This document shows positions 3,001-24,966 of a DNA stretch of 36,683 bases, one piece after another (position 1 is the stretch's first letter; the number at the start of each line of letters is the position of its first letter). The stretch spans positions 1 through 36,683 of the forward strand of contig CAZZCD010000002.1 in the NCBI GenBank assembly GCA_964652735.1. Direction: 5' to 3'. The stretch comes from Candidatus Woesearchaeota archaeon (GTDB lineage Archaea; Nanobdellota; Nanobdellia; Pacearchaeales; GW2011-AR1). The translations under genes and the position numbers were made by a program. The notes under the pieces were generated by a model, which ran no database searches, was not told the origin of the DNA, and saw only the letters and a list, made by a program, of their open reading frames with translations.

Positions 3001-6000
3001 CAATAGCCCATCCTGCTGCTTGTGTGTCTCTAAATCTTATATCTGAATCACCTGTTCCACCACCATCAATAACTAAAACTGCATTAGCTGCATTTAATAA
3101 TTGCATAGTTCCTTCTCTTACATCTAACTTAGTCGCTGGACTCGTCGTCCCGATGCCGACGTTGCTCGTAATATTATCTATAGCCAAAGCAACTGAACTT
3201 GTCCCATAATTGTAAATCAGTAAATCACCTGAACTTACTGGACGATAAAGTTCCCATTGATAATTTCCATCTTCCATAAAAAAAATGCCTGCTTCTTCAT
3301 TATCAGGTGCATCTAAAAAAAGAAATGCATCTTGAGTAGAACTATTTATTAGTATGCCATCAAGAGCTGTGCTTGTTTCAACAGTTAATTTCTTAGCAGG
3401 GTTAGTTGTTCCGATGCCGACGTTGCCTAAAAAGTAATTATCGTTAGCAGATTCAGTCTGTCTAAAAGTAGCTATATTTGTAAGAGCTCTAGTATTATCA
3501 ATAATAGTAGTCCCATCTATAATAAAACGACTATCTGAACCATTTAACAAAAGGTTTCCTGTTCCTCCTATTTCTAATTGTTTGCTTGGACTCGCCGTCC
3601 CAATGCCGACGTTGCCGTCATTTTGGAATGTTGTTAAAATTGTTGTCCCATACGCTATTTTTATATCATTGCTATCAGCAAATATAGAATATGCATTTGC
3701 TTGACCAGTGTCATCTATAACAAAAGCAGGATTTGCTGAACCTTCAATTTCTAAAAATGTAGATGAACCACCATCTTCTCTTGTTGGACTCGTCGTCCCA
3801 ATGCCAACCTTATCAGTATTACTATCAACAAACAAAACACTTGAATCAACACTAAAGTTATTTGCTCCTAAAACAACATTTTTGAAAGCACCTGTATATG
3901 GAACATAAGTGTCTGAGATGTTTGTATCTTCTGCTCCGTAAATTGTTCCTGTTACATTCAAATCTCCCACAACATTTAATGTGTTTTGTGGGGTTGCTGT
4001 GCCGATGCCGACGTTGCCAGTGGTATACAACTGGTCTGTATATGTATTCTTCCAATATCTAATACTACTACCTAAATCTAAACTACTGTCAGCACTAGGT
4101 TTAAGAACAGCATTAACTTGGACAACACTTGTGGCTGAACCCAAATATAAATCAGAAGCTTTTGTTGTTATCAATGAATATCCTGTTCCATCACCAGAAG
4201 TATCTGTAATTTTTATTCCCCTACTATTTACACTATTAACAACAATGTCCAACTTCGCCGAAGGACTAGTCGTCCCAATGCCAACCTTATCAGTATTACT
4301 ATCAACAAACAAAACACTTGAATCAACACTAAAGTTATTTGCTCCTAAATCAACATTTTTGAAAGCGCCTGTATAAGGCACAAAATCACCTGTAACATTC
4401 ACACCATTAATATATGTATTATGCGCTACAATATCATTTGCAATAAAGTTGTGTGTTCCCTCTATTGCTAAATCATAAACATGTTGTGGCTCGTGAGTTT
4501 TAATTGAAACAATCTTGTCAAAGAAAATATCAGCAGAAACATTTAAATATTTATTACCAGTATCTTTAGTTATGGTTGAAGTTACTATATCAATACCTGG
4601 AAAATTGAAAGAGAAAATGCAAAGAAGTGGCATAGGACTACATGTATTAGTTGAAAGACTAATAAAACAATTAGAAGAAGAGAAAGAAATGATAGATTGG
4701 TCAGTTAAATTGCAAAGAGCTTCTAGGAAAGGTAGGTTTGATGAACTGAAAAGAAGAGGATTAGTATAAATGAAATTTGTAGTTGATACAAATGTGTTAT
4801 TAACATTTTTTTGGGAGGATTCTTTTACTAAAGGAATATTACTTGACCAAGATTTTGAATTCTTTGCCCCAGAATATGCGTTAGAAGAAATCAATGGGCA
4901 TATATCTGAAATATTGCAAAAAACAAACACCTCATTAGAGCAATTCAAAGAACTAAGAAGAGATTTAGCTATCTGTGTTGAATTTATTCCATTAGAAAAA
5001 TATTCAGAATTTCTACAAAAAGTTTCAGATATTTCAGATAAAAAAGATGTTGATTTTATCGCATTAGCACTAAAACTCAAACTTCCTGTCTGGTCTAATG
5101 ACAAACATCTTAAGCAACAATCTTTAGTTAAAATATTCACAACAGAAGAATTAGTTAAATCCTTAGAATCCTCATAATTTCCTAACTTAGGAACAGCAAT
5201 CTCCTCACCTTCTTCTAATTCACTAACTTTAACCCAACCATCCTCTGTTAAATAAGGATGATTCCCAGTTGTGTTAACAGCTCTGCCACTCTCTGTAATC
5301 AACTCATAAATAGGCTTTTCACCCATATCTAATAAAGCTTTGACTTTGTTTGAAACAATCTCACCTGTTTCTTCATCTAAACTCAAAACATATTCACCAG
5401 CTTCAATATCTTTAATCTGCTTCTCTGAACCGTCTGCCATTGAAATCAGGCTGTCTTCTGCAACACACAATCCTGTTACGTTTAAGTCTCCATCAACATT
5501 CAAGGTGTTTTGTGGTGTTGTCGTCCCGATGCCGACGTTTCCACCTTCTAAGATTGTCATCTTCACATCATTACTTGTAGCAAAATATAATGGTTTGGCT
5601 TCTAACACATTAATCATACCATATTCTGCTGCATTATATCCGATATTCATACCATCTGAAATAAGAGCTCCTGTTTCATCTGTTGTAAATTTAATATATG
5701 CCTGACCTAAGCTGTGAATCTGAAGTGGGCGTGTTGGACTCGCCGTCCCGATGCCGACGTTGCCGTTAATCGCTAAAGCCGTACCCGCCGCCAAAGATTG
5801 ATCTGCCACATAGCCAATTACCTGGGCTCCTGATGATTGAACTGCCCAAGTATAAGATGACCCCGAACCAATATGTAACAATCCAAGAGGATTCGTCGTC
5901 CCGATGCCGACGTTGCCGTCTCCTCTTACGAGAAAATAGTTGCTTGAACCTGTTCGGTCTTGAATATAAAATGCTTTATCAGAAGAATTTGTCCCAGCTT

Positions 6001-9000
6001 TTATCCATGGTCCAAAACTCTGACCCGTTGTACTTCCTGCAGTAATTTCAGAAACATAATAATTATCCGCACCTGTCAATTCAAGCGCTCGTTGAGCGGC
6101 TCCTGCTAAGATTTCTACTTTATTACTTGGATTCGTAACTCCAATGCCGACGTTTCCTTCAACAATCAATCCATTAGCAGGAGGTTGTATATTATAATAA
6201 CCTCCTACCGAGAGACCAGAATTACTATGAAGTCCCATACCATACGCACCTTCATAAAATCTCATAAAATTAATGCCGGTAGTATTCACATTTTGTATAA
6301 ATGCTTGCACCCCTCCTGACGCTGAGTTTTCCAATCTTAAAGTAGGGTTATTATCCTTCAAATGAAGTAAGGAAGAAGGACTACTCGTCCCAATCCCAAC
6401 CATATTAGTATTTGAATCAACAAACAAAACACTTGAATCAACACTAAAGTTATTCGCTCCTAAATCAACATTGTAAAGAGCACCTGTATATGGAACATAA
6501 GTGTCTGAAAGATTTGCATCTCCTGCTCCGTATATTGTTCCGGTCACGTTTAAATCTCCAACAACATTCAAAGTGTTTTGTGGTGTTGTTGTGTTAATGC
6601 CGACGTTGCCGCTTCCTATAATAGCCAAAGCATCTCTGAAATCAGTACCATTAGATTGACTTAGATAAAGGTTACCATATATGTCATTACCTTTTGCTAT
6701 AATTTGAGTTGTCCCAAAGGCAGTATTAAATTGTCCCCAAGTATGATAATCATCTCCACCAGTATACCTATAAACCCGTATTCCATCAGTACTTCTATTT
6801 TCAGCACCACTAATTTTATTTAAGGTTAAATGAGCAGGAAGTGTTGAAGCGTCCCCGATGCCGACGTTTCCTCCTTGTTGTATTCTCATTGCCTCTGCAA
6901 CAGTACCACCTTGCTCTACTGCAAAAGCTAAATCACTATCGGTAGAACCTGTATCAATACCTGATATTCTGGCTATATTACCAGAACCTAAATTAAATAA
7001 AAGATTAGCAAATGAGTTAGTAGCACCATCTTCGTTTTGTATCATAATAGTTGCATCTGCTTCCTGACCACTAGAACTACTAGCATCATACGCTGTGGCA
7101 TCATCCTTCCTAACAACTAATAATGATGCTGGTGTTGTCGTCCCGATGCCGACGTTGCCACCTGTTTCAACCGTTACCAATTCCTGACTATTCATAGTAT
7201 TCACAGCCCCGTAAGCAATTTGGAATTTAGTATCATCATTCATACCTAATTTCCATGAATTAGCTTCTGCTGCTCCACCGCCAACTTCATAATAAATTTC
7301 ACCTGCTGCACTTTTTCCTCTAACTTCTATGGAAACATCTGCTGCATTTGTAAATGATGCTAATTGCTCATTATCTCCTGTAACTTCTAAAACATGCCCA
7401 GGTGTCGCCGTCCCGATGCCGACCCTATCAGTATTACTATCAACAAACAAAACACTTGAATCAACACTAAAATTATTTGCTCCTAAATCAACATTTTTTG
7501 TTGCACCTGTGTAAGGCACAAAATCCCCTGTAACATTCACACCATTAATATATGTATTATGAGCAACAATGTCATTTGCAATAAAGTTGTGTGTGTTTTC
7601 TATTGCAAGGTCATAAACATGCTGTGCTGGGTGTTGTTCTATTGAAGTTATTTTTTCCCATTTTATTATGTTTTGCCCATAATCAGGCACTGCTATTTCC
7701 ATTCCTTCTTCTAAATAAATTACTTTAAGCCACTCTACACCATCAGAAAGTTTTAAATATTCCTTGTTACTATTTTTATTTATGGCTGAATTAATAACTT
7801 CCCCTGAAACTGAATTAGATTTTAAATTAATGTCTAAAGCTGTAGTTCGATTAATGAAACAAGACATATCTGTAAGATTTAAACAAACAAGAGAAATAAC
7901 TGATGAAGATTGGGAATTTTGTGAGCAAATTAATTGGCATCCTGTTGATGAACTACCTATGAAAGAAGAATTTGTTAAAGAACTAAGAAAAAGAGAAAAA
8001 GGTCCGTTCATTAAATTTAATTCTGTGGATGAACTATTTAAAAAATGAGTTATACTCAAATTATTCATCCCAAATGTCAAAGAGAAATTAATAAGGTCTG
8101 TAGAAAAAATCCTATTCTTGAAAAAGTCCTTAGAAAAAAGATGGATGAAATCATCCAAAACCCCGGTCACTATAAATCTCTCAGACATGAGCTTGCTGGA
8201 GAAAGAAGAGTTCACATCCTCAAAAGTTTTATCCTCAAATTCAAAATTGATGAAGTCAACAAAATAGTTATGTTCCTCGCCTTCAGGCACCACGACAAAG
8301 CCTACTGATTTTTCCCCTAATTTTTCCTCAGAAGATAATTTAACCAAATAAGGATGATTTCCTGTTGTATTAATGCTTCTACCAGATTCTGTGGTTAACT
8401 CATAAATAGGCTTTTCACCCATATCTAATAATGCTAACACTTCATTAGAAACAATGTCTCCTGTTTCTTCATCTAAACTTAAAACACGCTCTCCCATTTG
8501 AACATCTTTAATCTCTTTTTTAGTTCCATCTGCCATTGAAATCAGAGAGTCTTCTGCAACACACAATCCTGTGACATTCAAATCTCCATCAACATTCAAT
8601 GTGTTTTGTGGTGTTGATGTGTTGATGCCGACGTTGCCGTCATTTTGAATCCTGACCCGTTCGTTCCCAGCCGCTTGACCTCCAGAATAAAATCGTATAT
8701 TACCAGAAGTATGACGTGCTATGATACTCAAACCCCCACTTAAATCTCCATCTGCTTCAATTGCTGCACCATCTTGCAGATATGCCCCAATAGGAGTATA
8801 TGCACTACCAAATGTAAAGAGATTCAACCAACCGCCATCGGCTTGAATTGAAGCTAGAGAACGTGAGTTGTTAGTTGGTTCTTTTACATAGAGGTCACCA
8901 TCATAAACTTCCAACTTCGCCGAAGGACTCGCCGTCCCAATTCCGACGTTACCACCTTCTAAAATAACCATATGCTCAGCTAATGTTCCAGTTCCTATAT

Positions 9001-9478
9001 TTTTCTTAAATATTAATCTTTCATTATCACTTTCAATGCCAACTATCCATTCATCTGTAGGAGACACTGAAGTTCCACCACTAGAAAGATACAAGTTTGA
9101 ATCTCCTCCACCTGCTTCGTGAATTTGAATAAGTCCTTGGACATCAAGTGCTTGATGTGGAGCAGTCGTCCCGATGCCGACGTTTCCTGAACTATCTAAA
9201 TTAATCCCTGTAGTTCCAGCATACTTAATATTCATTACATCATTACCTTGGTTATAATATAAATAACCTTTATTAGTGCCAGCATCTACTTGGAATCTTA
9301 TACCTACATCTGTATCTGCTGAATTAGCATCTGTATCTGAATTTATATCAATCCATGCTTCTCCTGTATCCGCTACATCTAACTTCTGTGAAGGACTCGT
9401 CGTCCCGATGCCGACATTACTGTTGTTATCAACATAAACATCTTCCTGATGCACGAAAGAATCGTGATATTCTGTTCT
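1..9478 (-). CDS. Giant repeat-rich secreted/surface fibre protein, 3'-partial (continues past the window start); hosts two inteins
   Basis: Plus-strand triplets in phase 2 mod 3 contain no TTA/CTA/TCA. I checked this by hand for 2-1650, 4430-5281, 5912-6154, 7742-8563 and 9380-9478. For the remainder it is implied by the absence of any in-phase minus-strand ORF call. An ORF with no stop inside the window is not listed, as shown by the unlisted partial pyrH at the right edge. The translation is Gly/Thr/Asn/Val-rich with 23 in-frame G-N-V-G-I-G-T-T-S-P modules and a DDHPQYL motif. Its repeat units match those in ORF 9479..12646. Confidence 0.8.
1020..1648 (-). repeat. Direct duplication of a 74-nt core (1020-1093 and 1575-1648) within a roughly 555-nt module repeat
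   Basis: The two copies differ at 4 positions. Both encode ...EAGTGITTTGAATDKVTVAATLGTA... Confidence 0.8.
4542..4549 (+). promoter_or_regulatory. TATA box of the intein-2 VapBC operon
   Basis: TTTAAATA (context TTTAAATATT) lies 30 nt upstream of ATG 4572. Confidence 0.5.
4572..4769 (+). CDS. VapB-like antitoxin (65 aa) embedded antisense in intein 2
   Basis: The ORF track calls a TTG start at 4515, which would lie inside the intein C-lobe. ATG 4572 is 30 nt downstream of TTTAAATA. The N-terminus MVEVTISIPGKLKEKM is typical of a small RHH/AbrB-type antitoxin. Its TAA stop is immediately followed by the vapC ATG. Confidence 0.6.
   Translation: MVEVTISIPGKLKEKMQRSGIGLHVLVERLIKQLEEEKEMIDWSVKLQRASRKGRFDELKRRGLV
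4770..5177 (+). CDS. vapC: PIN-domain toxin VapC (135 aa) embedded antisense in intein 2
   Basis: The N-terminus is MKFVVDTNVLL (first acidic residue). It continues ...APEYALEEI..., ...DVDFIALALKL... and ...VWSNDKHL, giving the PIN acidic-residue pattern. Size and position directly after a small antitoxin ORF also fit. Confidence 0.8.
   Translation: MKFVVDTNVLLTFFWEDSFTKGILLDQDFEFFAPEYALEEINGHISEILQKTNTSLEQFKELRRDLAICVEFIPLEKYSEFLQKVSDISDKKDVDFIALALKLKLPVWSNDKHLKQQSLVKIFTTEELVKSLESS
7752..7759 (+). promoter_or_regulatory. TATA box of the intein-1 TA operon
   Basis: TTTAAATA (context TTTAAATATT) lies 30 nt upstream of ATG 7782. The VapBC cassette has the identical box and spacing. Confidence 0.5.
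7782..8048 (+). CDS. Putative antitoxin (88 aa) of the intein-embedded RelE-type module
   Basis: The ORF track calls a TTG start at 7764. I prefer ATG 7782, which lies exactly 30 nt downstream of TTTAAATA. Its stop overlaps the toxin start (ATGA at 8045-8048). It is small and acidic, and its C-terminus (...REKGPFIKFNSVDELFKK) resembles that of the antitoxin at 13866 (...YEKGRFVELK). Confidence 0.6.
   Translation: MAELITSPETELDFKLMSKAVVRLMKQDISVRFKQTREITDEDWEFCEQINWHPVDELPMKEEFVKELRKREKGPFIKFNSVDELFKK
8045..8308 (+). CDS. RelE/ParE-family toxin (87 aa) embedded antisense in intein 1
   Basis: The pattern ...NPGHYKSLRHELAGERRVHILKSFILKFKIDEVNKIVMFLAFRHHDKAY matches the RelE/ParE layout (NP..x..L...L.G..R..i...f.l.y.i.......v....HH..aY). 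Its size is as expected and it has a 4-nt overlap with the upstream antitoxin. Confidence 0.75.
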   Translation: MSYTQIIHPKCQREINKVCRKNPILEKVLRKKMDEIIQNPGHYKSLRHELAGERRVHILKSFILKFKIDEVNKIVMFLAFRHHDKAY

Positions 9479-12400
9479 CTATAGATATTGTGCTTTTACT
9501 TCATCTGCTGATAATGCCCGGTTGTAAATGCGAACATCATCTAAACTCCCATTTAAATAATTACCCCCCCTATTCCCAATTGATGTAAGAGTAAAAGATG
9601 AAAAATCAGTAGATGTACCGCTAACATCATTTTCACCATTTAAATATATAATTGTTTGATTGTTTGTCTCATCATAGGTTAATGTTATAAATACCCACTC
9701 ATTTAAATTCCAAGGATTACTATTTAAATAATCACCTTCGTCTGCTAGTGCCCAATGTATATGATTATATAAATAAACATCCAAACCATCATTGGTAGAT
9801 GTAAATATTCCTGTCCAATATGCTTTAGTATATTGATAAAGCCATAATTCAGCACTAAATGACCCTGATATTGTTCTTCCTACACTAATATAATCATCTC
9901 CATCAAATTCAAAATCACCACCATTATTGAATCCACCTGATGAATTTGCTGTTGCTCCGTGATTTGTTCCGTGTTGATTGTAAATAGAACTATCTAAAAC
10001 AGTTTCGCTTCCTGCTGAACCTACAAGGTTTTCAGAATTAAAATTCATCGCTAAAATTAATCCTTCATCTGAAATCTCATGAATGCTTTTTGTATTTGTA
10101 AAACCATTAACATCTAATGTATAATTGGGACTAGTCGTCCCGATGCCGACGTTGCCTCCTGATTCAATTCTAAGAAGTTCTCCACCATTATATTGAAATA
10201 TATAATTACCTCCACTTATCCAATAACGGTCTAAAACAAAATCACCATTAGCATCATAAAACTCAATCGTCCCATAATGAGTTGCATCACTGCCCCCACC
10301 TATTTTTTTACTATTAGGTATGCTTAATTGATAAAGAGGACTCGTCTCCCCGATGCCAACGTTACCGCCTGCTTCTATTCTCATCTTTTCAGACCAACCA
10401 CTCTGTCCATAAGCACTATAAGTCCCAAACACTAAATCAGCAGGGGCATCAGAATCTCCAAAAGCAATATATGAATCAGTAGCATCTGCTGTTAAGATTA
10501 TAAAATTATCATTTGTATCCTCTTTTATCCCAAATGTAGCACTGGCTTTAGTTATATCTAAAGTTTTGGTTGGACTAGTCGTCCCAATCCCAACCATATC
10601 AGTATTTGAATCAACAAACAAAGTATCTGTGTCTACAGTCAGATTCTTCTTCAGCTCTGTGTTTCCGTAAACAATAAAATCATTAACTACACTCATGTTC
10701 TGCTTTGTCAGATTCATAGAAGTTATATTATAAACATAAATTGTCTGTGCATAAATACTGCCTGCGTCAATTGTAACACCTCCAGAAGCCCAGTCTCCAT
10801 CTACATCCAAGCTTCCTGCAATATCAAAATCCCCTACTACAGAAGTGTTCAAAGGCATGAAGAAAGTTGAGTCATAGCCATCCAGGGTCTCAGAACCCTG
10901 AGCAGATATATTAATGCATGTCAAAGTATCTCCAATTATTTGAACAGCATGTCCAGCAGGACAGGCAGAAGGATAATTTGTAAGATTTGCCCATCCGAGC
11001 AAACTTGTTCCATAATTCAAAGCAACTGTTTCTGTATAACCTTCTCCAGGTGTTCCTGAAACACTTATTCCACTTCCAGAAGCAACATCTCCGACATAAT
11101 TTCCAGTTGTATCTGTTCCAAGAACAACAGAATCTGGCTGCACAGCTGTAACTCCTGTGCTTGAAATATTAATATCTCCAGAAACAGCTTTTGTTTCCCA
11201 GGCAGTTCCAGAACCAATCAAAATATTTCCAGAAGTTGCAGTGGTTGTTCCAAGAGATGAGCCATTTATCTTAACAACATCTGGATTTGGATAAGTTCCA
11301 GATAAATCACCACCTGCAGTCTGTCCTTCTTTAATATAATTATTATCAAAATAAGTAGTATTTACATTTATAGTAGTTGTTCCGCCCAAAGCCACAGAAC
11401 CTCCTCCTATCAAACCAGTGCCTGCAGTAATAGTTAAAGTTGAATTAGCCAAGTCTACATTTCCAACAGCTCCGTCAGTTATCATAGCACTAGTTATTGA
11501 GTCCACTTGGTCTTCATTCACATACCTAATATCTCCTGTCTGGTTAAGCTTAGTCTCATTAAGAATAAAATAATTACTTGCATTCTTATAGATATAAATC
11601 CCTCCTGCATAATATAAGGTATCTGTATTAATATCTTCAGAACACTCCCAAGCAGAAGAAGTAGCATTCCACTTAGCAATCTCTGTATCTGCACAGCTCA
11701 ATCCTGCAAGAGTGTCATTCTCTCTAAGATCAATAGTCTGATTAAGCTGGCTTTCTGAAAAACTTAAAGTTGAACCGTCAAATGTCAGATAATCGCTGTC
11801 TTCTGTCCAATTAAATCTTCCTTTGAACCAGTCTGCTGTCACATTTCCTGTAACATTAACATCACCACCAACCCTGATATCTCCTGTAACATTTATATCT
11901 CCAGAAACATTAACATCTTGAACAAATAAACTTGTTATTCTATTTATCAAGCTTCCTAAAAAGCTGAAAAATCCTGAACTAGCACTTACATTATAACTTC
12001 CTAAAGTAAGATTAGAATCCACACTAACCTCACTCAAATTAACATCTGTTGCCCTAAATGCATAAGGAACTCTTCCAAGCTGAGATACATTCTTCAAAGT
12101 TCCATCTCTGTAATAACATAAGTAATACTGGGTGTCATAATCTAGTAAACTGAGATTCCCTCCTCCTGAGCCAACTGTTGGAAGATAAAGTGAAACAATT
12201 CCTCGTGTATCTGTAGTTTGTGAGGTAGAATGGTTATAAACAACATCAGGACCACAAAGTGTACTTGAATTATCTGTAATATTAAATCCAAAAGTAAACG
12301 TTCCTGTTTCAATTGTTCCATTAGAAAATGTTGTCTGAAGATTTATATGAAAAGTGTCATTGATTGGAGCAGCAGAAACCATGCTTAAAAAGAATATCAA

Positions 12401-12646
12401 ACTTGAAGCCAAAAATAAATTTATTAATAATTTCTTAGAACTTGTAAATTTTGGATTTTGTTTTTTAACAGTTTTTTTATTTTTCTGTTTAGATGGATAT
12501 TTTTTAAACTCTATCTTTTTCTTACTAACTGAAATATACCATACACTACTTGACATACAATTATTAATCAAAGACCAATCATAAAAATTAGGAACCATTT
12601 CAGGTCTAAAACAGGGTATTTTGGGCCTTTTGTATGTTTTTTCCAT
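9479..12646 (-). CDS. N-terminal part of the giant surface protein (signal anchor, fibre repeats, LamG-like jelly-roll domain); ends at a TAG in the same phase as the downstream 9.5 kb frame
   Basis: ORF track gives 1055 aa. An ATATAAAA box lies 29 nt upstream of ATG 12646. There is a hydrophobic anchor LLINLFLASSLIFFLSMVSAAP and more than 30 N-x-S/T sequons by eye. Three NVGIGT(T/E)SP-type modules are present. The C-terminal ...GSLDDVRIYNRALSADEV is typical of LamG/concanavalin-like domains. Confidence 0.85.
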   Translation of the reverse strand: MEKTYKRPKIPCFRPEMVPNFYDWSLINNCMSSSVWYISVSKKKIEFKKYPSKQKNKKTVKKQNPKFTSSKKLLINLFLASSLIFFLSMVSAAPINDTFHINLQTTFSNGTIETGTFTFGFNITDNSSTLCGPDVVYNHSTSQTTDTRGIVSLYLPTVGSGGGNLSLLDYDTQYYLCYYRDGTLKNVSQLGRVPYAFRATDVNLSEVSVDSNLTLGSYNVSASSGFFSFLGSLINRITSLFVQDVNVSGDINVTGDIRVGGDVNVTGNVTADWFKGRFNWTEDSDYLTFDGSTLSFSESQLNQTIDLRENDTLAGLSCADTEIAKWNATSSAWECSEDINTDTLYYAGGIYIYKNASNYFILNETKLNQTGDIRYVNEDQVDSITSAMITDGAVGNVDLANSTLTITAGTGLIGGGSVALGGTTTINVNTTYFDNNYIKEGQTAGGDLSGTYPNPDVVKINGSSLGTTTATSGNILIGSGTAWETKAVSGDINISSTGVTAVQPDSVVLGTDTTGNYVGDVASGSGISVSGTPGEGYTETVALNYGTSLLGWANLTNYPSACPAGHAVQIIGDTLTCINISAQGSETLDGYDSTFFMPLNTSVVGDFDIAGSLDVDGDWASGGVTIDAGSIYAQTIYVYNITSMNLTKQNMSVVNDFIVYGNTELKKNLTVDTDTLFVDSNTDMVGIGTTSPTKTLDITKASATFGIKEDTNDNFIILTADATDSYIAFGDSDAPADLVFGTYSAYGQSGWSEKMRIEAGGNVGIGETSPLYQLSIPNSKKIGGGSDATHYGTIEFYDANGDFVLDRYWISGGNYIFQYNGGELLRIESGGNVGIGTTSPNYTLDVNGFTNTKSIHEISDEGLILAMNFNSENLVGSAGSETVLDSSIYNQHGTNHGATANSSGGFNNGGDFEFDGDDYISVGRTISGSFSAELWLYQYTKAYWTGIFTSTNDGLDVYLYNHIHWALADEGDYLNSNPWNLNEWVFITLTYDETNNQTIIYLNGENDVSGTSTDFSSFTLTSIGNRGGNYLNGSLDDVRIYNRALSADEVKAQYL

Positions 12647-13539: not shown

Positions 13540-13660
13540 GAGCCTGTAGCTCAGTCTGGTTAGAGCACTGCTCTTATATGAATCTAATTCGCAAGGATTA
13601 GTTTCTCTTGGAAGATTCTAAGAGAGGCAGGGGTCCTCGGTTCAAATCCGAGCAGGCTCA
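13540..13660 (+). tRNA. tRNA-Ile(UAU)-like with a 46-nt intron (13579-13624) at the canonical 37/38 position
   Basis: I folded it by hand. Acceptor is GAGCCUG/CAGGCUC, D stem GCUC/GAGC and anticodon stem CUGCU/GGCAG. The loop is C-U-UAU-A then the intron. T arm is CUCGG-UUCAAAU-CCGAG and the discriminator is A. TTTAAATA lies at 13509-13516, 31 nt upstream. Confidence 0.75.
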
Positions 13661-13741
13661 TAAAACTTTTAAAAAGTTTTAGATCAAACCTAGATACTTA
13701 TCAGTTATCTTTAAAAACTAATTTTGATAATTCTTTATAAT

Positions 13742-13814
13742 GCCCCGATAGTTCAGAGGCCAAGAATGCAAGGTTTTCAACCTTGTGACCCGGGTTCGAA
13801 TCCCGGTCGGGGCG
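13742..13814 (+). tRNA. tRNA-Glu(UUC)
   Basis: Acceptor is GCCCCGA/UCGGGGC, D stem GUUC/GAAU and anticodon stem CAAGG/CCUUG with loop UU-UUC-AA. T arm is CCGGG-UUCGAAU-CCCGG. Confidence 0.9.
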
Positions 13815-13839
13815 TTATAACCCTAATTTAAAAGAAAGA

Positions 13840-18182: not shown

Positions 18183-18725
18183 TCAAAAAAACTTATCTAA
18201 AACAGATTTACTTAATTGTTTGAAAGCATCACATTCGTGCTTTAAATGATAAGAAAACTTTATTTCAAATCCTATGTTCTCAACGTTTTTTCCAATTTCT
18301 TGAACAGCTTTTATAGCAGGGACAAAATCTCCATCTGTAGAAACTAATATTGCAGTATCATAGGCATTGTTATAAGCTAATTTTACCATATCAACAGCAA
18401 GATGAATGTCATCTTCTTTAACCTGATAATCTATTTTTCCATCAATCTTAACTTTTTGCATTCTACATAAAATAAGCTTAAAATTTGGAATCTTTTTCAA
18501 TTTTTCAAAGAATTTTTGCTGTTTCCTATAGGTTATTCCATCTTTTTTCCTATCTAAAGGTGCAGTATAATAATAAACCCTTATCTTTTTCCTTCCTGAA
18601 ACAAGATGCCTAGAAAATCTATCAAAATCAAATTTCATAAAAGTTTTAGATGCTCCATATATTTCTTTAAGAATATGGTAAAAATTACTTCCATCAATAA
18701 AAATAATTATTCTATCAGTCATCAC
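18183..18725 (-). CDS. NYN/LabA-like (PIN-related) domain protein
   Basis: The motifs are IIIFIDGSNFYH... and ...AILVSTDGDFVPAIKAVQEIGKNVENIGF. Confidence 0.8.
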   Translation of the reverse strand: MMTDRIIIFIDGSNFYHILKEIYGASKTFMKFDFDRFSRHLVSGRKKIRVYYYTAPLDRKKDGITYRKQQKFFEKLKKIPNFKLILCRMQKVKIDGKIDYQVKEDDIHLAVDMVKLAYNNAYDTAILVSTDGDFVPAIKAVQEIGKNVENIGFEIKFSYHLKHECDAFKQLSKSVLDKFF

Positions 18726-18832: not shown

Positions 18833-18970
18833 CTATTTTCTTTCATCAATCTCTTTTTTTAAAGATTTAGTAAATACGCTAACTTTCATTCTTTTTATCT
18901 TCTTATCTCCACGAATTCTTAGAGCCACACTGCCATCTTTTTCTTCTTTCTCACCAACAACAATTAATTT
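18833..18970 (-). pseudogene. Displaced 3' remnant of a ThrRS-type anticodon-binding domain (45 codons plus stop, no start, preceded by an in-frame TAG)
   Basis: The minus-strand translation is KLIVVGEKEEKDGSVALRIRGDKKIKRMKVSVFTKSLKKEIDERK*. It aligns with the C-terminus of the intact ThrRS (VILAGDEEEKNNTIAVRHMGKVNYNVKIDDFIKELKKSIEERK*). About 19 of 43 positions are identical by eye, including the terminal ...ERK stop. Confidence 0.6.
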
Positions 18971-19016
18971 CTAAGTGGTTATAAATATTTATATTCTCCT
19001 TTAACTATAATGTTAT

Positions 19017-20144
19017 ATGAAATTTAACATTCTGCAATATTTACCTAACACAACAAAAATAATGATAGATAAAGAAATAAGAAAAGAATTATTTTCTAAT
19101 AAATCTATAAGTGAATGGAGTAAATCTCTTAATGTTCCTTTAAAAAACATAAGCAGATATATCAATGGGACAAGATCCATTCCGATAACATTATTAACTG
19201 AATTGGCCAAATCAAAGAAGATAAACAGTAAATTACAAGATAAAATAAAACTTAAAATAACTAAAAGCGGGAATTATCTCAGAATTGGCCCAATAATTAA
19301 AATAGATGAAGACTTGATATATGTAGCAGAATTGATTAAAGGGGATGGACATATCACCCCCAATTTCTGGAGGATAATCTTTGTGAATAATAATGGATTT
19401 TTAATAACTTATGTTCATAATTTTTTCAAGTCTTTAGGAATAAAACAAAGCCAGATAAGCCTTATTAAAAGAAAAGATGCTAATTTTCTTACTATAAGAT
19501 CATCCTTATTAGCCATATTATTCAATAAAATTTTGGAGGTTCCATCAGGAAGAAAAAAAGAATTAAATATTCCTGAATTCGTACTTTCAGACAGAAATTT
19601 AAGTATCGCGGCGGTTAGGGGAGCATTTGATGCTGAAGGACATATAACTTCAAAAGGTTCTAGAAGGATTTCTATAACATCAAATAGTAAAAAATGGTTA
19701 ACCCAATTAAAACAAATCTTAGAGAAGTTAAATATAAATTCAAGAATATTTGAAGACAAATCAAAAAGAAAAGAGCCACTCTACAGGCTCTTTATATCCC
19801 ATAGACAAAATCTCATAAAATTTCTAAAAATAATCAAACCTTTACACACGAAAAGAAAAGAAAAATTAAAAGAAAGATTATCTGATTATACAAAAAATCC
19901 TCAAAAAGAATTTCATAAGAGAATATTGCTCTCAATAAAAAAGGGAAATACCAGAAGAAGAGAAATTGCTAGCGATATAAAACAGGATTTAATATTAATT
20001 GGGAACAATATTAATTGGTTAAAGAAAAAAAGGTATATAGATTCTTTCGAAAAGATTTATACAAACAAAGGATGTTACCATAAATACAAAGTTACTGGAA
20101 AAGGGGAAGGATATCTAGAAAAATCACTTTCTTTCTTCGATTGA
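19017..20144 (+). CDS. Free-standing double-motif LAGLIDADG homing-endonuclease-like protein with N-terminal HTH
   Basis: Two dodecapeptide motifs are present: YVAELIKGDGHI and IAAVRGAFDAEGHI. The N-terminal SISEWSKSLNVPLKNISRYINGTRSIP looks like an HTH. The 3' end overlaps the thrS 3' end convergently by 21 nt. Confidence 0.8.
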   Translation: MKFNILQYLPNTTKIMIDKEIRKELFSNKSISEWSKSLNVPLKNISRYINGTRSIPITLLTELAKSKKINSKLQDKIKLKITKSGNYLRIGPIIKIDEDLIYVAELIKGDGHITPNFWRIIFVNNNGFLITYVHNFFKSLGIKQSQISLIKRKDANFLTIRSSLLAILFNKILEVPSGRKKELNIPEFVLSDRNLSIAAVRGAFDAEGHITSKGSRRISITSNSKKWLTQLKQILEKLNINSRIFEDKSKRKEPLYRLFISHRQNLIKFLKIIKPLHTKRKEKLKERLSDYTKNPQKEFHKRILLSIKKGNTRRREIASDIKQDLILIGNNINWLKKKRYIDSFEKIYTNKGCYHKYKVTGKGEGYLEKSLSFFD

Positions 20145-21818
20145 TTTTTTAAGTTCCTTAATGAAATCATCAATTTTAACATTATAATTAACTTTTCCCA
20201 TATGACGAACAGCAATTGTGTTATTTTTCTCTTCCTCGTCCCCAGCCAGAATCACCCAAGGAATTTTCATAATCTCTGCATCTTTAACTTTAGAAGAAAC
20301 AGACACAGATCTTAAATCCGAATCAATTCTCAAACCAAGAATGTTTTTTTTCAATTGCTCTACTGCTTTTACAGCATATTTTTCATTTCTGCTTGTTAAG
20401 CTCAACACACGAACCTGAACAGGAGCAAGCCATGTCATAAGCCTTCCTTTTGTATGCTCAAGAAGAATCCCTATAAACCTCTCTAGAGAACCATAAACAG
20501 TTCTGTGTAACATAATTGGCCTTTTCTTTTTGTTGTCTTTATCAGTATATTCTAATTCAAATCGCTCTGGCATTGCAAAATCTAATTGTATCGTTGCTGT
20601 CTGCCATGTTCTTCCTAATGAATCTTTAATATGAAAATCAATCTTAGGACCATAAAAAACACCTTCACCTTTATTTAGTTTAAACTTGATTTTTTTCTTT
20701 TTTAAAACTTCTTCTAAAATTTTTTCAGCCATAACCCACATTTTGTCAGAACCAATTCTTTTTTCAGGTCTTGTAGAAAGTTCAACATGATAATCAAATT
20801 TAAATTTTTTATAAAATTTGGAAACTAATCCTATAACATCAATAACTTCTTTCTCAACTTGTTCTTCATTAGCACAATAAATATGTGCATCATCTTGAGT
20901 AAATTTAATAACTCTGAACAAGCCACCCAAAACCCCTGAAAGTTCTTGTCTATGAACAGTTCCTAATTCAGCAATTCGTAAAGGTAAATCCCTGTAGCTC
21001 TTTGGAGAATTTTTAAAAACCAGGATGCCTCCAGGACAATTCATTGGTTTAACTGCAAAAACATTATTATCATAATCTGTTAAGAAAATATTTTCCCTGT
21101 ATTTTTCCCAGTGGCCTGAAATCTGCCATAATTTTTTATTTAAAATTTGAGGGGTTGAAATTTCCTGGTAATTTGCCTTTTTATGTTCTTCTCTCCAAAA
21201 TTTAATAAGTTCTTTATAAATAATCCATCCATTATTATGCCAAAAAACCATACCTGGCGCAGTTTCAGAAAAACTAAATAAATCCATTTGTTGGCCAATA
21301 ATCCTATGGTCATTATTTTTTAATTTTGAGCTATCAAGAATGTTTTTCCCAATACTTCTCAAAAGATTCTTTGAATCAATTTTTTCTTCTGTCTTTTTTT
21401 CAGTTCTAATCTCCCTTGACAATTCACTTAACGGGTGCCCTTTAACTTTTAATTCAAACTCCTTGTAATACCCAAAAGGAGCGTTTGTAACATTGAAATC
21501 CCCTCCAAGCTCTTTTCCAGCCTTTTTCAAAACCTCAACAGCTACATCAGAAGAAGCAAGATTATTTGAAAGATGAGCATAAGGATATAAAACAATGTTT
21601 TTAACATTTACTTGGCCTGCAACATCCTTAATATTCTTCACAAGTTCTTTAATAGATTCCTTAACGCTGTCGGTTTTTTCAACAGCAGTTAAAACCACGA
21701 GGGATTCTTTAACTTTTTCCCCTTTTTTCTCTTTATCTGTCAGCACCTCAATGTTTTTCAAAGCTTTTTTTAAAGGTTTAAAATTAATATAATCAACATG
21801 TAAAGTTAGGATTTTCAT
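20124..21818 (-). CDS. thrS: Threonyl-tRNA synthetase with archaea-specific N-terminal editing domain
   Basis: The editing domain reads MKILTLHVDYINFKP...LYPYAHLSNNLA...APFGYYKEFELKVKGHPLSEL. Class II core motifs are present (FRVIKFTQDDAHIYC, YGPKIDFHIKDSLGRTWQTATIQLDF). An anticodon-binding domain follows. Confidence 0.95.
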   Translation of the reverse strand: MKILTLHVDYINFKPLKKALKNIEVLTDKEKKGEKVKESLVVLTAVEKTDSVKESIKELVKNIKDVAGQVNVKNIVLYPYAHLSNNLASSDVAVEVLKKAGKELGGDFNVTNAPFGYYKEFELKVKGHPLSELSREIRTEKKTEEKIDSKNLLRSIGKNILDSSKLKNNDHRIIGQQMDLFSFSETAPGMVFWHNNGWIIYKELIKFWREEHKKANYQEISTPQILNKKLWQISGHWEKYRENIFLTDYDNNVFAVKPMNCPGGILVFKNSPKSYRDLPLRIAELGTVHRQELSGVLGGLFRVIKFTQDDAHIYCANEEQVEKEVIDVIGLVSKFYKKFKFDYHVELSTRPEKRIGSDKMWVMAEKILEEVLKKKKIKFKLNKGEGVFYGPKIDFHIKDSLGRTWQTATIQLDFAMPERFELEYTDKDNKKKRPIMLHRTVYGSLERFIGILLEHTKGRLMTWLAPVQVRVLSLTSRNEKYAVKAVEQLKKNILGLRIDSDLRSVSVSSKVKDAEIMKIPWVILAGDEEEKNNTIAVRHMGKVNYNVKIDDFIKELKKSIEERK

Positions 21819-21852: not shown

Positions 21853-22563
21853 TTACTTTTTCCATATTTGATGAAAAAATTCTTTATACATTTCTGCTAT
21901 TTGTTTAGATTTTATTAAATAGCCAACTGGTTTCTCGCCCCAAGAGAAGAAAGCAATTTTATCTCTACAAATGCTTATATTAGAAGGTATTGGAAAGTCT
22001 ACATATTTTATTTTCAAAATTTTTCTTTTTGCAAATAATTTTCTTAGTTCTTTTGGAGCTAACCCCTTAATATTTAATCCCTTAGCTTTTCTCTTAGCAT
22101 CATACATTTCAAAAAATTCCTGTATCTCCTTATTCATTTCTTTTACATTTACAGAGAAAAACAGATATTCTTCCCCCCTCTTCGTGTCTTCTATTAAAAT
22201 ATTGAGCATAGAAATTATTCCTTTTGTTCCTTCAAATATCTCGGCACCCTGTTTTTCTTTTGATTTTTTTTGTTGTAATTCTAATTCTGGCAATATTTTT
22301 AGAAAATCTTTCTTTTTATCATCAATAAAACTCAAAATTTGTTTTGGTGGAACAGTCTGATAAAACTTAATCTTTCCTTTTTTAATATAAGAGATCAATC
22401 CTTTCTCAATAAGTGTATTAATTGAATTGTGCACTGCCGAGCTTGCCATTCTTGATTTCTCTATAATATTTCCTACTTTAGTCTCTCCAAGCCTTAGAAG
22501 AGAGATATAAACAGAAATCTCCCCCTTACTTAAACCCACTTCCTCAAGAATTGCAGTATCCAT
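21853..22563 (-). CDS. TrmB-family transcriptional regulator
   Basis: The N-terminal wHTH is GLSKGEISVYISLLRLGETKVGNIIEKSRMASSAVHNSINTLIEKGLISY. Confidence 0.8.
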   Translation of the reverse strand: MDTAILEEVGLSKGEISVYISLLRLGETKVGNIIEKSRMASSAVHNSINTLIEKGLISYIKKGKIKFYQTVPPKQILSFIDDKKKDFLKILPELELQQKKSKEKQGAEIFEGTKGIISMLNILIEDTKRGEEYLFFSVNVKEMNKEIQEFFEMYDAKRKAKGLNIKGLAPKELRKLFAKRKILKIKYVDFPIPSNISICRDKIAFFSWGEKPVGYLIKSKQIAEMYKEFFHQIWKK

Positions 22564-22677
22564 TAAAAAAAGACCCAGTTAAACTATTTAAATCTTGTTA
22601 TAACTCTCCAAAAATAGAGAGTTATTATTTATATTAGATAATGTCTATAAAATATTAATTAAATCAATGAAAAGAAA

Positions 22678-23160
22678 ATGAAACTCAAAAAATACATAAC
22701 AAAACAAGGATGGAAAGAAGATTGGAATCAGACAAAGAAAGATTTCAGAAAAGTTGGTAAGCTTGCGAAGAAAGTTGGAGAAACAGCTTACTGGGATCTC
22801 TATTATACAACTGGTTACAGCAGCATGGCTGGTCTTGGTAATGGTATAGCGAATGCTCAAAAAGGAGAGTCCTTTAAGAAAGGATTCGGAGAAGCTTACG
22901 TCAATAATTTCCCTTTAGGAATGGCTGTAAATCTTGCATATCCTATATTATTCAATAAATTAAAGAAATCCAAGAACTATAGACTTTACGCTAATCTGGC
23001 AACACTAGGAATTAATGCAGGATTTCTAGCATGGCATTATCTTACAGGAACAGATAATCCTATACAAGCTATGGTTCCAAATACTCTCGTAGGATTAGCT
23101 ATGGCTAATGGACATGTATCCCAGACAAAAAAGAAAAATCTCGAAGAAGCAATAGTTTAA
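22678..23160 (+). CDS. Hypothetical protein (possibly membrane-associated)
   Basis: The ORF is 160 aa and I recognise no motif. Confidence 0.5.
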   Translation: MKLKKYITKQGWKEDWNQTKKDFRKVGKLAKKVGETAYWDLYYTTGYSSMAGLGNGIANAQKGESFKKGFGEAYVNNFPLGMAVNLAYPILFNKLKKSKNYRLYANLATLGINAGFLAWHYLTGTDNPIQAMVPNTLVGLAMANGHVSQTKKKNLEEAIV

Positions 23161-23169
23161 AAAATTAAT

Positions 23170-24966
23170 CTAAAGAAATTTATGAACTTGCTTTCTCGCT
23201 TTTCTTAGTTTTTTCTTGTGTTTCTTCAAAAATACATTTATTTTTTTTATTGCAATCTCTTTCAACTCTGAAGTCAGCATTTCTCCTTTCCTATATTTAT
23301 TTTCTATTTCTGCAAGTTTTTTATCATTAGGTTCAAAAAACATTTTCAAATACTGGAAAGAAACATCTTTATCAGGATTTCCTCCTTTCTCTTTATGCTC
23401 TTTAACAGTATCTCTTCCGCCTGAAAAAGCATATTTCCTTATCTTCCTCTCAACATCTTTAGGAGAATCAGTCATAGCTATAAAAGACGACTTGTCACTG
23501 CTTGACATTTTCCCAGTTCCTTTCAAACTAGGAATAAAAATATGATAAGTTGAGCTTATCTGGTTAAAATCATAATCTTTATACCTGTTCCCCATACCTC
23601 TTGCAATTCTTATGTGTGGGTCTTGGTCTGTTCCAACAGGAATAAATGTTGGAATAGGTTTGCCTTCAAACTCTGGAAGTTGTGGATGAAACATATCTGC
23701 TACCTGTAGTAGAGAAGCATTCATTTTTCCAGGAGAAATAGCCCCATAAACTGCTCTGAATTCATTAAAAGTAGCATATCTTGAAAAATTCGAAGCCAGT
23801 TTATAATATGCATTTGACTTTTCAGCGTCCCTTGATCTCTCGCTCTGAAAATAAAAATCAACATTTTTTGGCTTTAATCCTAATGCTATATAATTAAGCA
23901 AGTACTGCTCTATAGCTATTTTTCTGAGTTCTTCAAGAGATTTTTCCCGGGTATTATAAGCTTCAAGATCTGCAACAGCAATATACAATTTTGCCCCTAA
24001 CTTTTGATAAAATATCATTTGTTGTGCGAGCAACATATGGCCAAAATGAAAATCTCCAGAAGGCATTAAACCAGTCATCATAACAAATTCCTTTCTATTC
24101 TTAATGCAATCTAAAATCTTTTCAAAATCCCTATGCGCAAAAACAGCTTTTCTTCTAAAAAGAATATTGTCATTAAACATTTTTGGCAGACTTGGCAGTA
24201 GTTTTATGCCAAATTTTCTTACTAATTTCTTATAATCAATTTCTCCAGAGACTTCCCATGGAGTAACTGTTGTTCCTTCTGTCATGCCATAATTTAAGTT
24301 AATTTCTCTTTTAAAACTTTTTACTTTTTTAATCACGGCTTCAACTAAAACATCAATTGTATCAATCTTTCTAAAAGAAGTATTTTTTAACATAACTGCA
24401 AGCTCTGTACATCCAAGTAAAACAGCATCAAATTCTTTTTTACAAATCTCTTTAACTTTTTCAATCTGCTTGGATTTTTCTAGCCCTTTATTGAAATTAA
24501 AAATAGCTTCTGATAGAATTTTTGTTTCTTCGCTAGAGGGTTTAATTATATTAAACTCATCAAAATCATAAAGTCCTTTATTAAGAGTACTTGGAGTGCC
24601 AATTATCAAAATATTTTTAAGATTATTCTCAATAAGAAAATCCTTGACTTCTTTCCTTAAATCTAAAATAGGGGTATCAATTTCTTCCTGTAATTTATCA
24701 TAAAACAAGTGAATTGTATTACAAATTATCAAGATAAAATCTACATCAAATTTTTCCAGTTCTTTAAGACCATCTAGATAAGGTTTTAGATCTCTATCAA
24801 AAATTTTTTCATGGATCAGTTCTGGTGCAGGGATACTATTAACAATTATCTGCGGAAAATCCTCATTGCTTCTAACTAAATCTTTTTCTTGTAATTTTCT
24901 AATTAATCTCTTATAAAACTCTCCTGTAGCTTCTGGACCAATTCCACCAAGAACACCTATCTTAAT
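23170..24966 (-). CDS. trpS: In-frame fusion: Asp/Glu racemase domain (about 24286-24966) plus archaeal tryptophanyl-tRNA synthetase (23170-24285)
   Basis: The TrpRS part reads MTEGTTVTPWEVSGEIDYKKLVRKFG, with HIGH-type FHFGH, GTDQDPHIRIAR and KMSSS. The racemase part has ICNTIH and LGCTELAVM (the two catalytic Cys motifs). The N-terminal KIGVLGGIGPEATGEFY motif lies upstream of the track's TTG start 24732. The frame is open back to TAG 24991-24993 with no ATG/GTG/TTG. ATT 24964-24966 sits 9 nt after GGAGGT (24976-24981). Confidence 0.7.
   Translation of the reverse strand: MKIGVLGGIGPEATGEFYKRLIRKLQEKDLVRSNEDFPQIIVNSIPAPELIHEKIFDRDLKPYLDGLKELEKFDVDFILIICNTIHLFYDKLQEEIDTPILDLRKEVKDFLIENNLKNILIIGTPSTLNKGLYDFDEFNIIKPSSEETKILSEAIFNFNKGLEKSKQIEKVKEICKKEFDAVLLGCTELAVMLKNTSFRKIDTIDVLVEAVIKKVKSFKREINLNYGMTEGTTVTPWEVSGEIDYKKLVRKFGIKLLPSLPKMFNDNILFRRKAVFAHRDFEKILDCIKNRKEFVMMTGLMPSGDFHFGHMLLAQQMIFYQKLGAKLYIAVADLEAYNTREKSLEELRKIAIEQYLLNYIALGLKPKNVDFYFQSERSRDAEKSNAYYKLASNFSRYATFNEFRAVYGAISPGKMNASLLQVADMFHPQLPEFEGKPIPTFIPVGTDQDPHIRIARGMGNRYKDYDFNQISSTYHIFIPSLKGTGKMSSSDKSSFIAMTDSPKDVERKIRKYAFSGGRDTVKEHKEKGGNPDKDVSFQYLKMFFEPNDKKLAEIENKYRKGEMLTSELKEIAIKKINVFLKKHKKKLRKARKQVHKFL

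Follow-up and report, generated by a model that had tools for sequence, protein, structure and literature searches.

How does an archaeal threonyl-tRNA synthetase gene (thrS) come to have two 3′ ends, and which of them is its own? The question arises in a 36,683-nt stretch of the Candidatus Woesearchaeota contig CAZZCD010000002.1 (the whole stretch that was analysed, referred to below as the window), where a free-standing LAGLIDADG endonuclease gene lies between an intact thrS and a second thrS end without a start codon. It is highly probable that a mobile element of ~1.29 kb (window ~18965-20257) invaded the thrS 3′ end by homing and displaced the native end. As judged from its sequence, this element comprises a ~44-codon replacement thrS 3′ end, a convergent LAGLIDADG gene with a 21-nt overlap, and a 52-nt region that presumably serves as promoter. 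Nor is the fresh-looking insertion in the window isolated: by sequence it belongs to a thrS-specific element family found across DPANN archaea. The locus is made up of the following parts.

20124..21818, minus strand: thrS, an intact archaeal-type threonyl-tRNA synthetase (ThrRS) gene of 564 aa, recognised by open reading frame (ORF) and Pfam; a hybrid with a native body and a foreign 3′ end
20377..21818, minus strand: native part of thrS
20258..20376, minus strand: upstream co-conversion tract, foreign thrS sequence without a displaced counterpart
20124..20257, minus strand: cargo, the replacement thrS 3′ end, ~44 codons plus stop, beginning ..CCTT/GGGTGAT (the slash marks the junction)
20124..20144: tail-to-tail overlap of thrS and the endonuclease gene, 21 nt, the thrS stop plus 6 codons
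19017..20144, plus strand: endonuclease gene, 375 aa, with a helix-turn-helix (HTH), a LAGLIDADG and a winged-HTH part; converges on thrS; Pfam LAGLIDADG_3
18965..19016, plus strand: element 5′ region, likely the endonuclease promoter; 52 nt, conserved, with TATA-like boxes at ~18979-18995
18833..18964, minus strand: displaced native thrS 3′ end (the remnant); its open frame reaches 18970 and has no start codon
18183..18832, minus strand: native downstream context of thrS, a spacer plus an NYN-domain gene (18183-18725; Pfam NYN)

A first-pass annotation, made from the letters of the sequence, had placed thrS, the convergent endonuclease gene and the open fragment exactly where the ORF list has them. 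It had also counted the overlap rightly as the last seven thrS codons including the stop, and had given the translation of the start-less fragment 18833-18970 without error. ThrRS carries the archaeal editing domain tRNA-Thr_ED, the class II core tRNA-synt_2b and a complete HGTP_anticodon domain (residues 468-558), all matched in Pfam. Within the overlap, SLSFFD-stop at the end of the endonuclease is read antisense to IEERK-stop of ThrRS. On the far side of the endonuclease gene, the remnant frame (45 codons, 18833-18970) is preceded by an in-frame TAG at 18971-18973 and offers no usable start. True thrS homology in this frame begins at 18964, and the codons at 18965-18970 are the conserved element end, which reads ...TAATTTC on the plus strand and GAAATTA on the thrS strand. 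The collinearity of the fragment with the ThrRS C-terminus, first estimated by eye at about 44% identity, holds on alignment to residues 522-564 (43%, E = 1e-7 in a single comparison), and both sequences end in ERK-stop.

The closest relatives of the window indicate which end is native. The six nearest ThrRS proteins (P0002-P0005, P0008 and P0009), which are 81-85% identical overall to that of the window, finish in ...GSVALRIRGxxxIKxMKV..SLKKEIxERx, a C-terminus that resembles the remnant and is unlike the current window end, ...NNTIAVRHMGKVNYNVKIDDFIKELKKSIEERK. The source names of these nearest proteins suggest a low-GC DPANN archaeon of the Pacearchaeota/'Nanoarchaeota' type. Gene order on the related contigs L001-L003 is that of the window (PPDK, a 272-aa gene, a 677-aa gene, a class I W/Y synthetase, thrS, a variable gene, a 164-aa gene and glycosyltransferases), with the endonuclease gene absent from all three. 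The closest endonuclease-free relatives thus lack both the gene and the current end and terminate in a remnant-like sequence, as the first reading had anticipated. The remnant itself matches ThrRS, and specifically the native C-terminus of these relatives, rather than another class IIa synthetase.

At the DNA level, window thrS is 91.6% identical to that of L002 over alignment columns 1-1442 (down to ~20377), 66.4% identical over columns 1443-1561 (20258-20376; Fisher p = 3e-13 against the body) and 54% identical from column 1562 to the end (20124-20257; Fisher p = 3e-26 against the body). The control pair L001-L002 gives 86.5%, 89.9% and 74.5% over the same three segments, with no comparable step. 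The identity steps at ~20377 and 20257 therefore delimit a foreign tract of ~254 nt, made up of 134 nt of cargo and ~119 nt of co-conversion. The replacement segment proposed earlier (20124-20261) was right as to foreign origin, given the 54% identity to L002, and too short at ~138 nt.

The remnant aligns with the thrS 3′ ends of L001 and L002 from ATTGTTGTTGG to the stop codon. Its DNA identity to L001 is 85.2%, the same value as for the gene body, and its translation is 84% identical to the C-terminus of P0005, which is encoded on L001 (E = 3e-18). It contains no frameshift or internal stop, and its synonymous and nonsynonymous codon counts, although few (7 versus 9), do not differ from those of the L001-L002 control (11 versus 13). 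As it is as close to the relatives as the gene body is, no decay is measurable, and the earlier description of the remnant as decaying does not hold. That the original end was pushed downstream is confirmed both by the match of the remnant to the relatives' native C-terminus and by an empty site. In the endonuclease-free loci L060/L061, the thrS stop is followed by the same spacer and NYN gene that follow the remnant in the window (89% identity over 168 nt). At the DNA level, the cargo is most similar to thrS ends at endonuclease-carrying loci (L019 81%, L064 79%, L043 and L034 77%), and the nearest relatives of the endonuclease gene (L018, L034, L019, L064 and L020; 72-75% nucleotide identity) are largely these same loci. 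Sequence comparison establishes in this way that an insertion took place, that the current thrS end is foreign and that the remnant is native.

The product of the inserted gene has the features of a homing endonuclease, including both signature motifs.

19320..19349, plus strand: LAGLIDADG motif 1, YVAELIKGDG; D110 is invariant in 52 aligned homologues
19608..19643, plus strand: LAGLIDADG motif 2, AAVRGAFDAEGH (core AAVRGAFDAEG); E207 is present in at least 90% of the 52 homologues and G208 is invariant

The 375-aa protein matches Pfam LAGLIDADG_3 (E = 2.8e-19, 69.6 bits). It has 58 homologues, nearly all of 370-380 aa; the alignment of 52 of them gives a consensus ending in SLSFFD. An AlphaFold2 model (pLDDT 90.9) shows an N-terminal helical HTH domain and a C-terminal winged helix, with a low-confidence tail at residues 371-375. 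Between them, model residues ~98-275 form two alpha-beta-beta-alpha-beta-beta-alpha units, which is the pseudo-dimeric LAGLIDADG fold. Foldseek matched the model with probability 1.0 to the TliVMA and PI-PfuI intein endonucleases, I-DmoI and I-Tsp061I, and placed WhiA lower; the TM-score normalised to I-DmoI was ~0.72-0.76 (Foldseek), at a sequence identity of ~20-24%. A profile search of PDB sequences recovered the endonuclease domain of the TliVMA intein (E = 2e-5) and related residues 297-370 to winged helices of the AspA/MarR/PadR type. By its motifs and modelled fold, the protein is a two-motif monomeric LAGLIDADG homing endonuclease, which would be expected to cleave DNA. Enzymes of this class make site-specific double-strand cuts in long targets of ~20 bp, with 4-nt 3′ overhangs.

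Selection on the family points the same way, as a ratio of nonsynonymous to synonymous substitution (dN/dS) of 0.15-0.24 fits a protein kept functional. In other copies the gene is degenerate, owing to two in-frame stops (L019), a frameshift (L011), the absence of residues 1-101 (L030) or the absence of the winged helix (L016 and L053). Conserved residues alongside some degenerate copies fit the life cycle of a homing endonuclease. No Hint or Intein_splicing match was found in the 375-aa protein, and no Rfam intron family in the region. An intein- or intron-encoded enzyme is ruled out, since thrS is uninterrupted and collinear with its relatives and the endonuclease gene is antisense to it. 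L053 also carries a distant LAGLIDADG paralogue (203-1129, minus strand; 22% identical), ~3 kb from its thrS-associated endonuclease gene on a 211-kb contig.

The arrangement recurs well beyond the window. Scanning GTDB species genomes and JGI metagenomes with an endonuclease profile yielded 56 loci, from metagenome-assembled genomes (MAGs) of Nanoarchaeota, Pacearchaeota and Woesearchaeota and one MAG labelled Aenigmatarchaeota. At 44 of them thrS converges on the endonuclease gene; the contigs of the other 12 end inside that gene or at most ~310 nt past it. Convergence is retained even where the endonucleases are only 33-38% identical and ThrRS has another architecture (no editing domain, or the 625-aa type). 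Most loci have a stop-to-stop overlap of 21 nt, the others one of 0, 4, 22, 23, 33, 34 or 46 nt. When the 1.5 kb upstream of each endonuclease gene were searched with ThrRS C-termini as queries (E <= 1e-4), at least 14 non-redundant loci proved to have thrS 3′ remnants, which lie on the thrS strand at a distance of 50-110 nt from the endonuclease start; weaker matches occur in several more loci. These remnants are intact in L004, L024 and L064, and bear stops or indels in L006/L029, L027, L011/L031 and L016. A recurrent architecture is thereby demonstrated at the sequence level. Conservation ahead of the endonuclease ATG extends over 52 nt, up to ...GAAATTA, in 15 loci of the window's clade; beyond this point the sequences diverge or a remnant starts. 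The TATA-like boxes were read directly from this conserved stretch. As conservation stops there, the element end can be placed at window 18965, and the 52-nt region is likely the promoter of the endonuclease gene.

The endonuclease of L010 (362-3366; also L023) is 63% identical to that of the window and still ends in SLSFFD. The ThrRS encoded beside it is of 625 aa, only 35% identical and ends in ..PLPLPVLISKRPVFI, with a 4-nt overlap and no remnant, which suggests a jump onto another thrS type. In L052 (3889-3933) and L054 (3-107), where ThrRS is of the 626-aa type, a 15-codon fragment upstream of the endonuclease gene is 93% identical to the current end of the thrS gene itself (LPLPRLLSKRPIFV.), so that the duplicated ends have hardly diverged.

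Carrier and type-A alleles of thrS differ in sequence at the insertion site, as their consensus sequences and one example of each show.

Type-A allele, endonuclease-free: ATGArGATTCCTTAyATwrTTGTwrTTGGnGAyAArGA, encoding IPY-I(I/V)V-GDKEE; in L002, ...GATGCTGAAATTATGAAGATTCCTTATATTGTTGTTTTAGGAGGTAAGGAGG...
Carrier allele, window's clade: ATGArrrTTCCyTGGGTGATyyTnnnnGGnGAy, encoding IPW-VI..GD; in the window itself, ...ATGAAAATTCCTTGGGTGATTCTGGCTGGGGACGAGG...

At the junctions of the window, L024 and L064, the insertion point lies directly 3′ of CCTTA, where element-free CCTTAyATwrTTGT is set against CCTTGGGTGATyyT in carriers. More distant endonuclease clades pair with other site variants (IPF-I.T and KIN-.I.V). 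Among the 120 nearest ThrRS, 82 (~70%) have the 'PY'/40-residue type-A tail, which is the presumably susceptible type, 16 have 'PW' and 6 'PF', in a patchy distribution. L060 (2055-3749) and L062 (177-1862), both close endonuclease-free relatives of the window, contain a third foreign thrS 3′ tract of ~310 nt, with the sequence 'PFVVLIGDKEQKNKTLAIRH'. This tract is 95% identical between the two, its upstream breakpoints differ and its last ~27 nt are type-A-like. Loss of an endonuclease gene, through recombination of cargo with remnant, could have left such tracts as scars; alternatively, they may represent resistant source alleles or have arisen by ordinary recombination.

Separate invasions can be followed in lineages other than that of the window. 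The ThrRS body of L024 is 95% identical to P0063, whose contig, L063, is endonuclease-free with a type-A end. The L024 remnant is likewise 95% identical to the P0063 C-terminus, and the current L024 end only 49%. In L024, as in the carrier L064 (P0013), sequence switches from host-like to foreign exactly at ATTCCTT/GGGTGAT, against ATTCCTTA/CATAATTGT in L063, and upstream co-conversion is absent from both. Synonymous divergence (dS) of thrS is 0.39 between L024 and L063 and 0.70 between L024 and L064. The element-free L063 is therefore nearer to L024 than the carrier L064 is, and the distribution of the element departs from the host tree. A second pair, L021 and L034, has thrS bodies that are ~77% identical (thrS dS 1.26), while the last 200 nt of thrS, the endonuclease gene and the promoter are ~91% identical (endonuclease dS 0.30). 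The flanks beyond the element are unrelated at 33-49%. A block ~91% identical inside ~77% identical genes, with unrelated flanks, demonstrates that a discrete unit has moved horizontally. No endonuclease relative was found in IMG/VR viral contigs, and the idea of a viral vector was dropped.

A homing cycle can be proposed that would produce this structure. The endonuclease would cut an element-free thrS at or near ...ATGAAGATTCCTTA/yATwrTTGTwrTTGG..., a sequence coding for the conserved strand IPY-IVV-GDKEE in the anticodon-binding domain. The recognition site would span perhaps 20-30 bp, and the break would be repaired by copying the element-carrying allele. On the left side, repair would proceed through thrS homology, with co-conversion of variable length (~119 nt in the window, ~0 in L024 and L064). 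On the right side, the recipient's own 3′ end may cross over with the displaced 3′ end of the donor, the remnant acting as a homology arm. The outcome would be a functional hybrid thrS, with the native last 44 codons pushed downstream without promoter or start. Such a repair route would leave the junction identical across lineages while the remnant stays host-like. With an altered target site (CCTTGGGTGATTCTGGCTGG), the new end is presumably immune to cutting, and since it keeps a complete anticodon-binding domain, thrS would stay functional. The cut position, the immunity of carrier alleles and the role of the remnant as homology arm are all read from aligned alleles and are put forward on that footing.

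Several results weigh against invasion by homing, or narrow its reach. Endonuclease identity correlates with identity of the ThrRS body (Mantel rho 0.57) no less than with that of the 45-aa C-terminus (0.48), and the partial correlation between endonuclease and C-terminus, with the body controlled, is weak at 0.23; among pairs with body identity >0.6 the Mantel analysis gives no significant correlation either way. The argument relies instead on the breakpoints at individual loci. Since endonuclease identity tracks the ThrRS body, much transmission would be vertical or within clades. The search of 1.5 kb upstream detected no remnant in about half of the carrier loci, to which the homology-arm idea cannot apply. 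B-type or similar ends also occur without the endonuclease gene, in P0006/L062, P0007/L060, P0017 (L065-L067), P0031 (L068/L069) and P0047 (L070). A foreign-type end is therefore not exclusive to the element, and the rule that a B-type end means endonuclease presence was rejected; these alleles may be source lineages, loss scars or plain recombinants. The donor search turned up no cargo or endonuclease sequence closer than 75-81% nucleotide identity, which places the donor lineage outside the sampled genomes. Finally, all loci, the window included, are metagenome assemblies, many of them independent.

A different reading takes the gene to be a domesticated WhiA-like DNA-binding regulator, or another host-beneficial factor tied to thrS, with the mosaic ends left by ordinary homologous recombination. 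It would account for the position of the gene beside thrS even at 33-38% protein identity in several DPANN lineages, for the additional HTH and winged-helix domains, for purifying selection and for the overall correlation of endonuclease with ThrRS body identity. WhiA is indeed among the structural matches and likewise has a helix-turn-helix type domain C-terminal to its LAGLIDADG scaffold; in addition, JGI gives one of the homologues the label WhiA. The WhiA Pfam model, however, matches only at threshold (23.7 bits against a cutoff of 23.2, compared with 69.6 for LAGLIDADG_3), and the closest structural matches are active endonucleases. WhiA is inherited vertically and lacks the catalytic D/E of the LAGLIDADG motifs, which the thrS endonuclease keeps in both. 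Moreover, the distribution of the gene is patchy: the closest relatives lack it, as do most of the 120 nearest ThrRS contexts (inferred or checked). Insertion is invariably at the same nucleotide position, with displaced 3′ ends left behind, the block has been transferred between lineages, and pseudogenised copies exist. On catalytic residues, absence from the nearest relatives and mobility, the protein was not assigned to the WhiA-type domesticated regulators, and this account of the locus as a whole is improbable.

Much less credible still is a local tandem duplication of the thrS 3′ end, whose copies diverged before an unrelated event inserted the endonuclease gene between them. Two collinear ends that are 43% identical and both finish in ..ERK-stop would be expected from it. 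Yet the downstream copy is as close to L001 as the gene body is, whereas the copy inside the gene, at 54% to relatives, reaches 77-81% to the thrS ends of other endonuclease-carrying lineages. The divergent tract also extends ~119 nt upstream of the duplicated part, and the same junction recurs in unrelated lineages. The slimmest chance of all belongs to an assembly artefact, in which two co-assembled strains were joined at thrS to create a fake hybrid and a duplicated end. Strain mixtures are common in DPANN metagenomes, from which the window and all comparison loci derive, but the same three-part arrangement appears in many independent assemblies, samples and pipelines (JGI, ENA, Logan and NCBI MAGs). 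The order of B-type end, endonuclease gene, type-A remnant and native downstream sequence is unlike a simple strain switch, and thrS is still an intact ORF with a complete anticodon-binding domain.

Invasion by homing, the favoured explanation, has close parallels in organelles, where the first-pass annotation had correctly pointed to 3′-end replacement as a known strategy of homing endonuclease genes. Fungal mitochondrial mORFs with C-terminal duplication occur in Allomyces macrogynus atp6, in Glomus sp. atp6, atp9, cox2 and nad3, in Rhizopus atp9 and in Mortierella cox2 (PMC3630166; also PMC6279837). There too, a free-standing LAGLIDADG (or GIY-YIG) ORF sits in the 3′ part of an essential gene and supplies a foreign in-frame C-terminus, while the native one is displaced downstream and unused; of the two copies, only the native one groups with close relatives (PMC3630166). 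For Glomus atp6, identity amounts to 91% between the native copy and a relative and to 63.5% between the two copies (PMC3630166). The figures at thrS are strikingly similar, with the remnant at 85% to a relative, the current end at 54% to the native-type end of L002, and 43% protein identity between current end and remnant. The thrS locus shares with mORFs the continuous host gene, the foreign in-frame 3′ segment, the displaced native end and horizontal spread, and empty sites are represented by L001-L003, L060/L061 and L063. It differs in its host, an archaeal (DPANN) chromosome, and in its target, an aminoacyl-tRNA synthetase (aaRS) gene in place of an organellar respiratory gene. Its endonuclease gene lies on the opposite strand and converges with a 21-nt stop overlap, whereas in fungi host gene and endonuclease ORF typically share a strand and are often joined in frame. 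The thrS enzyme has the extra N-terminal HTH and C-terminal winged helix, and one coherent family keeps one target across several archaeal lineages.

I-DmoI, I-Tsp061I, PI-PfuI and the TliVMA intein endonuclease share with the thrS enzyme a monomeric two-motif core and conserved catalytic acidic residues. Unlike these archaeal enzymes, it lies outside any intron or intein, and host function is kept by a replacement end instead of splicing. The free-standing homing endonucleases of T-even phages (seg, mob) also lie beside their targets, spread by double-strand-break repair with co-conversion of flanks, and render the carrier allele resistant. They are mostly GIY-YIG or HNH enzymes, and are usually intergenic, without displacement of a gene end. 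A full-text literature search found nothing that links thrS, or DPANN and other archaea, with free-standing LAGLIDADG genes, although its coverage was incomplete and an earlier description is possible. The mechanism thus has precedent, and what is new is the archaeal chromosome, the aaRS target, the antisense stop overlap, the enzyme with HTH and winged helix, and persistence at one site across DPANN. On balance, these elements probably form an undescribed DPANN-wide family of free-standing LAGLIDADG genes dedicated to one site in the thrS anticodon-binding domain. Such a family would be locked to its cargo by the 21-nt antisense overlap, and would repeatedly overwrite the ThrRS C-terminus, leaving remnants and loss scars.

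Other features of the window lie outside the element. The slot between thrS or its remnant and the 164-aa gene, which in the window lies beyond the NYN gene, downstream of the remnant, varies among close relatives. It holds NYN in the window (18183-18725) and L060, CofD in L001 (7762-8697) and L062, and a 60-aa ORF in L002 (7750-7932) and L003. Even in the absence of an endonuclease gene, then, the flank 3′ of thrS is a variable spot. On the other side, a TrmB-family regulator (21853-22563, minus strand) and a 160-aa ORF (22678-23160, plus strand) occupy window 21853-23160, between the W/Y synthetase gene and thrS. Since these two genes abut or overlap in L001, L003, L060 and L068, a second insertion in the window, on the other side of thrS, is indicated. 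The class I W/Y synthetase ORF (23170-24732, minus strand) is 520 aa long against 366-375 aa in relatives, and its first ~130 residues match the C-terminal half of an Asp/Glu racemase. It is either a racemase fragment read through from an upstream TTG or a real fusion.

Farther away, a giant ORF of at least 3159 aa (2-9478, minus strand) extends beyond the left edge of the window. It has two Pfam Intein_splicing/Hint matches (~7556-8542 and ~4418-5446) of ~330-340 residues each, with no LAGLIDADG match, so that the earlier mention of nearby endonuclease-less inteins was roughly right. A 1055-aa ORF with a Laminin_G_3 domain (9479-12646) adjoins it. Upstream of tRNA-Glu (13741-13815), a second tRNA of 121 nt (13540-13660, plus strand) is matched by Rfam and not called by ARAGORN; its length makes it probably intron-containing.

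With the thrS elements, the 'bring your own gene end' strategy known from homing endonucleases of organelles is seen to work in an archaeal chromosome as well, where its object is an essential translation gene. They offer an explanation for the puzzling mosaic ThrRS C-termini of Pacearchaeota and Woesearchaeota, which matters for the use of aaRS as phylogenetic markers. Empty sites, fresh insertions, decayed remnants, pseudogenes and possible loss scars together provide a natural, replicated data set on the life cycle of homing endonucleases in uncultivated archaea. The enzyme itself, a new LAGLIDADG scaffold with HTH and winged-helix additions and a predictable target of ~20-30 bp, is a candidate for genome engineering. 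If the proposed reading is true, these elements would be the first homing system of the mORF type (with C-terminal replacement) to be documented on an archaeal chromosome, and a core archaeal translation gene would be under continuing mosaic evolution and horizontal transfer driven by a selfish endonuclease.

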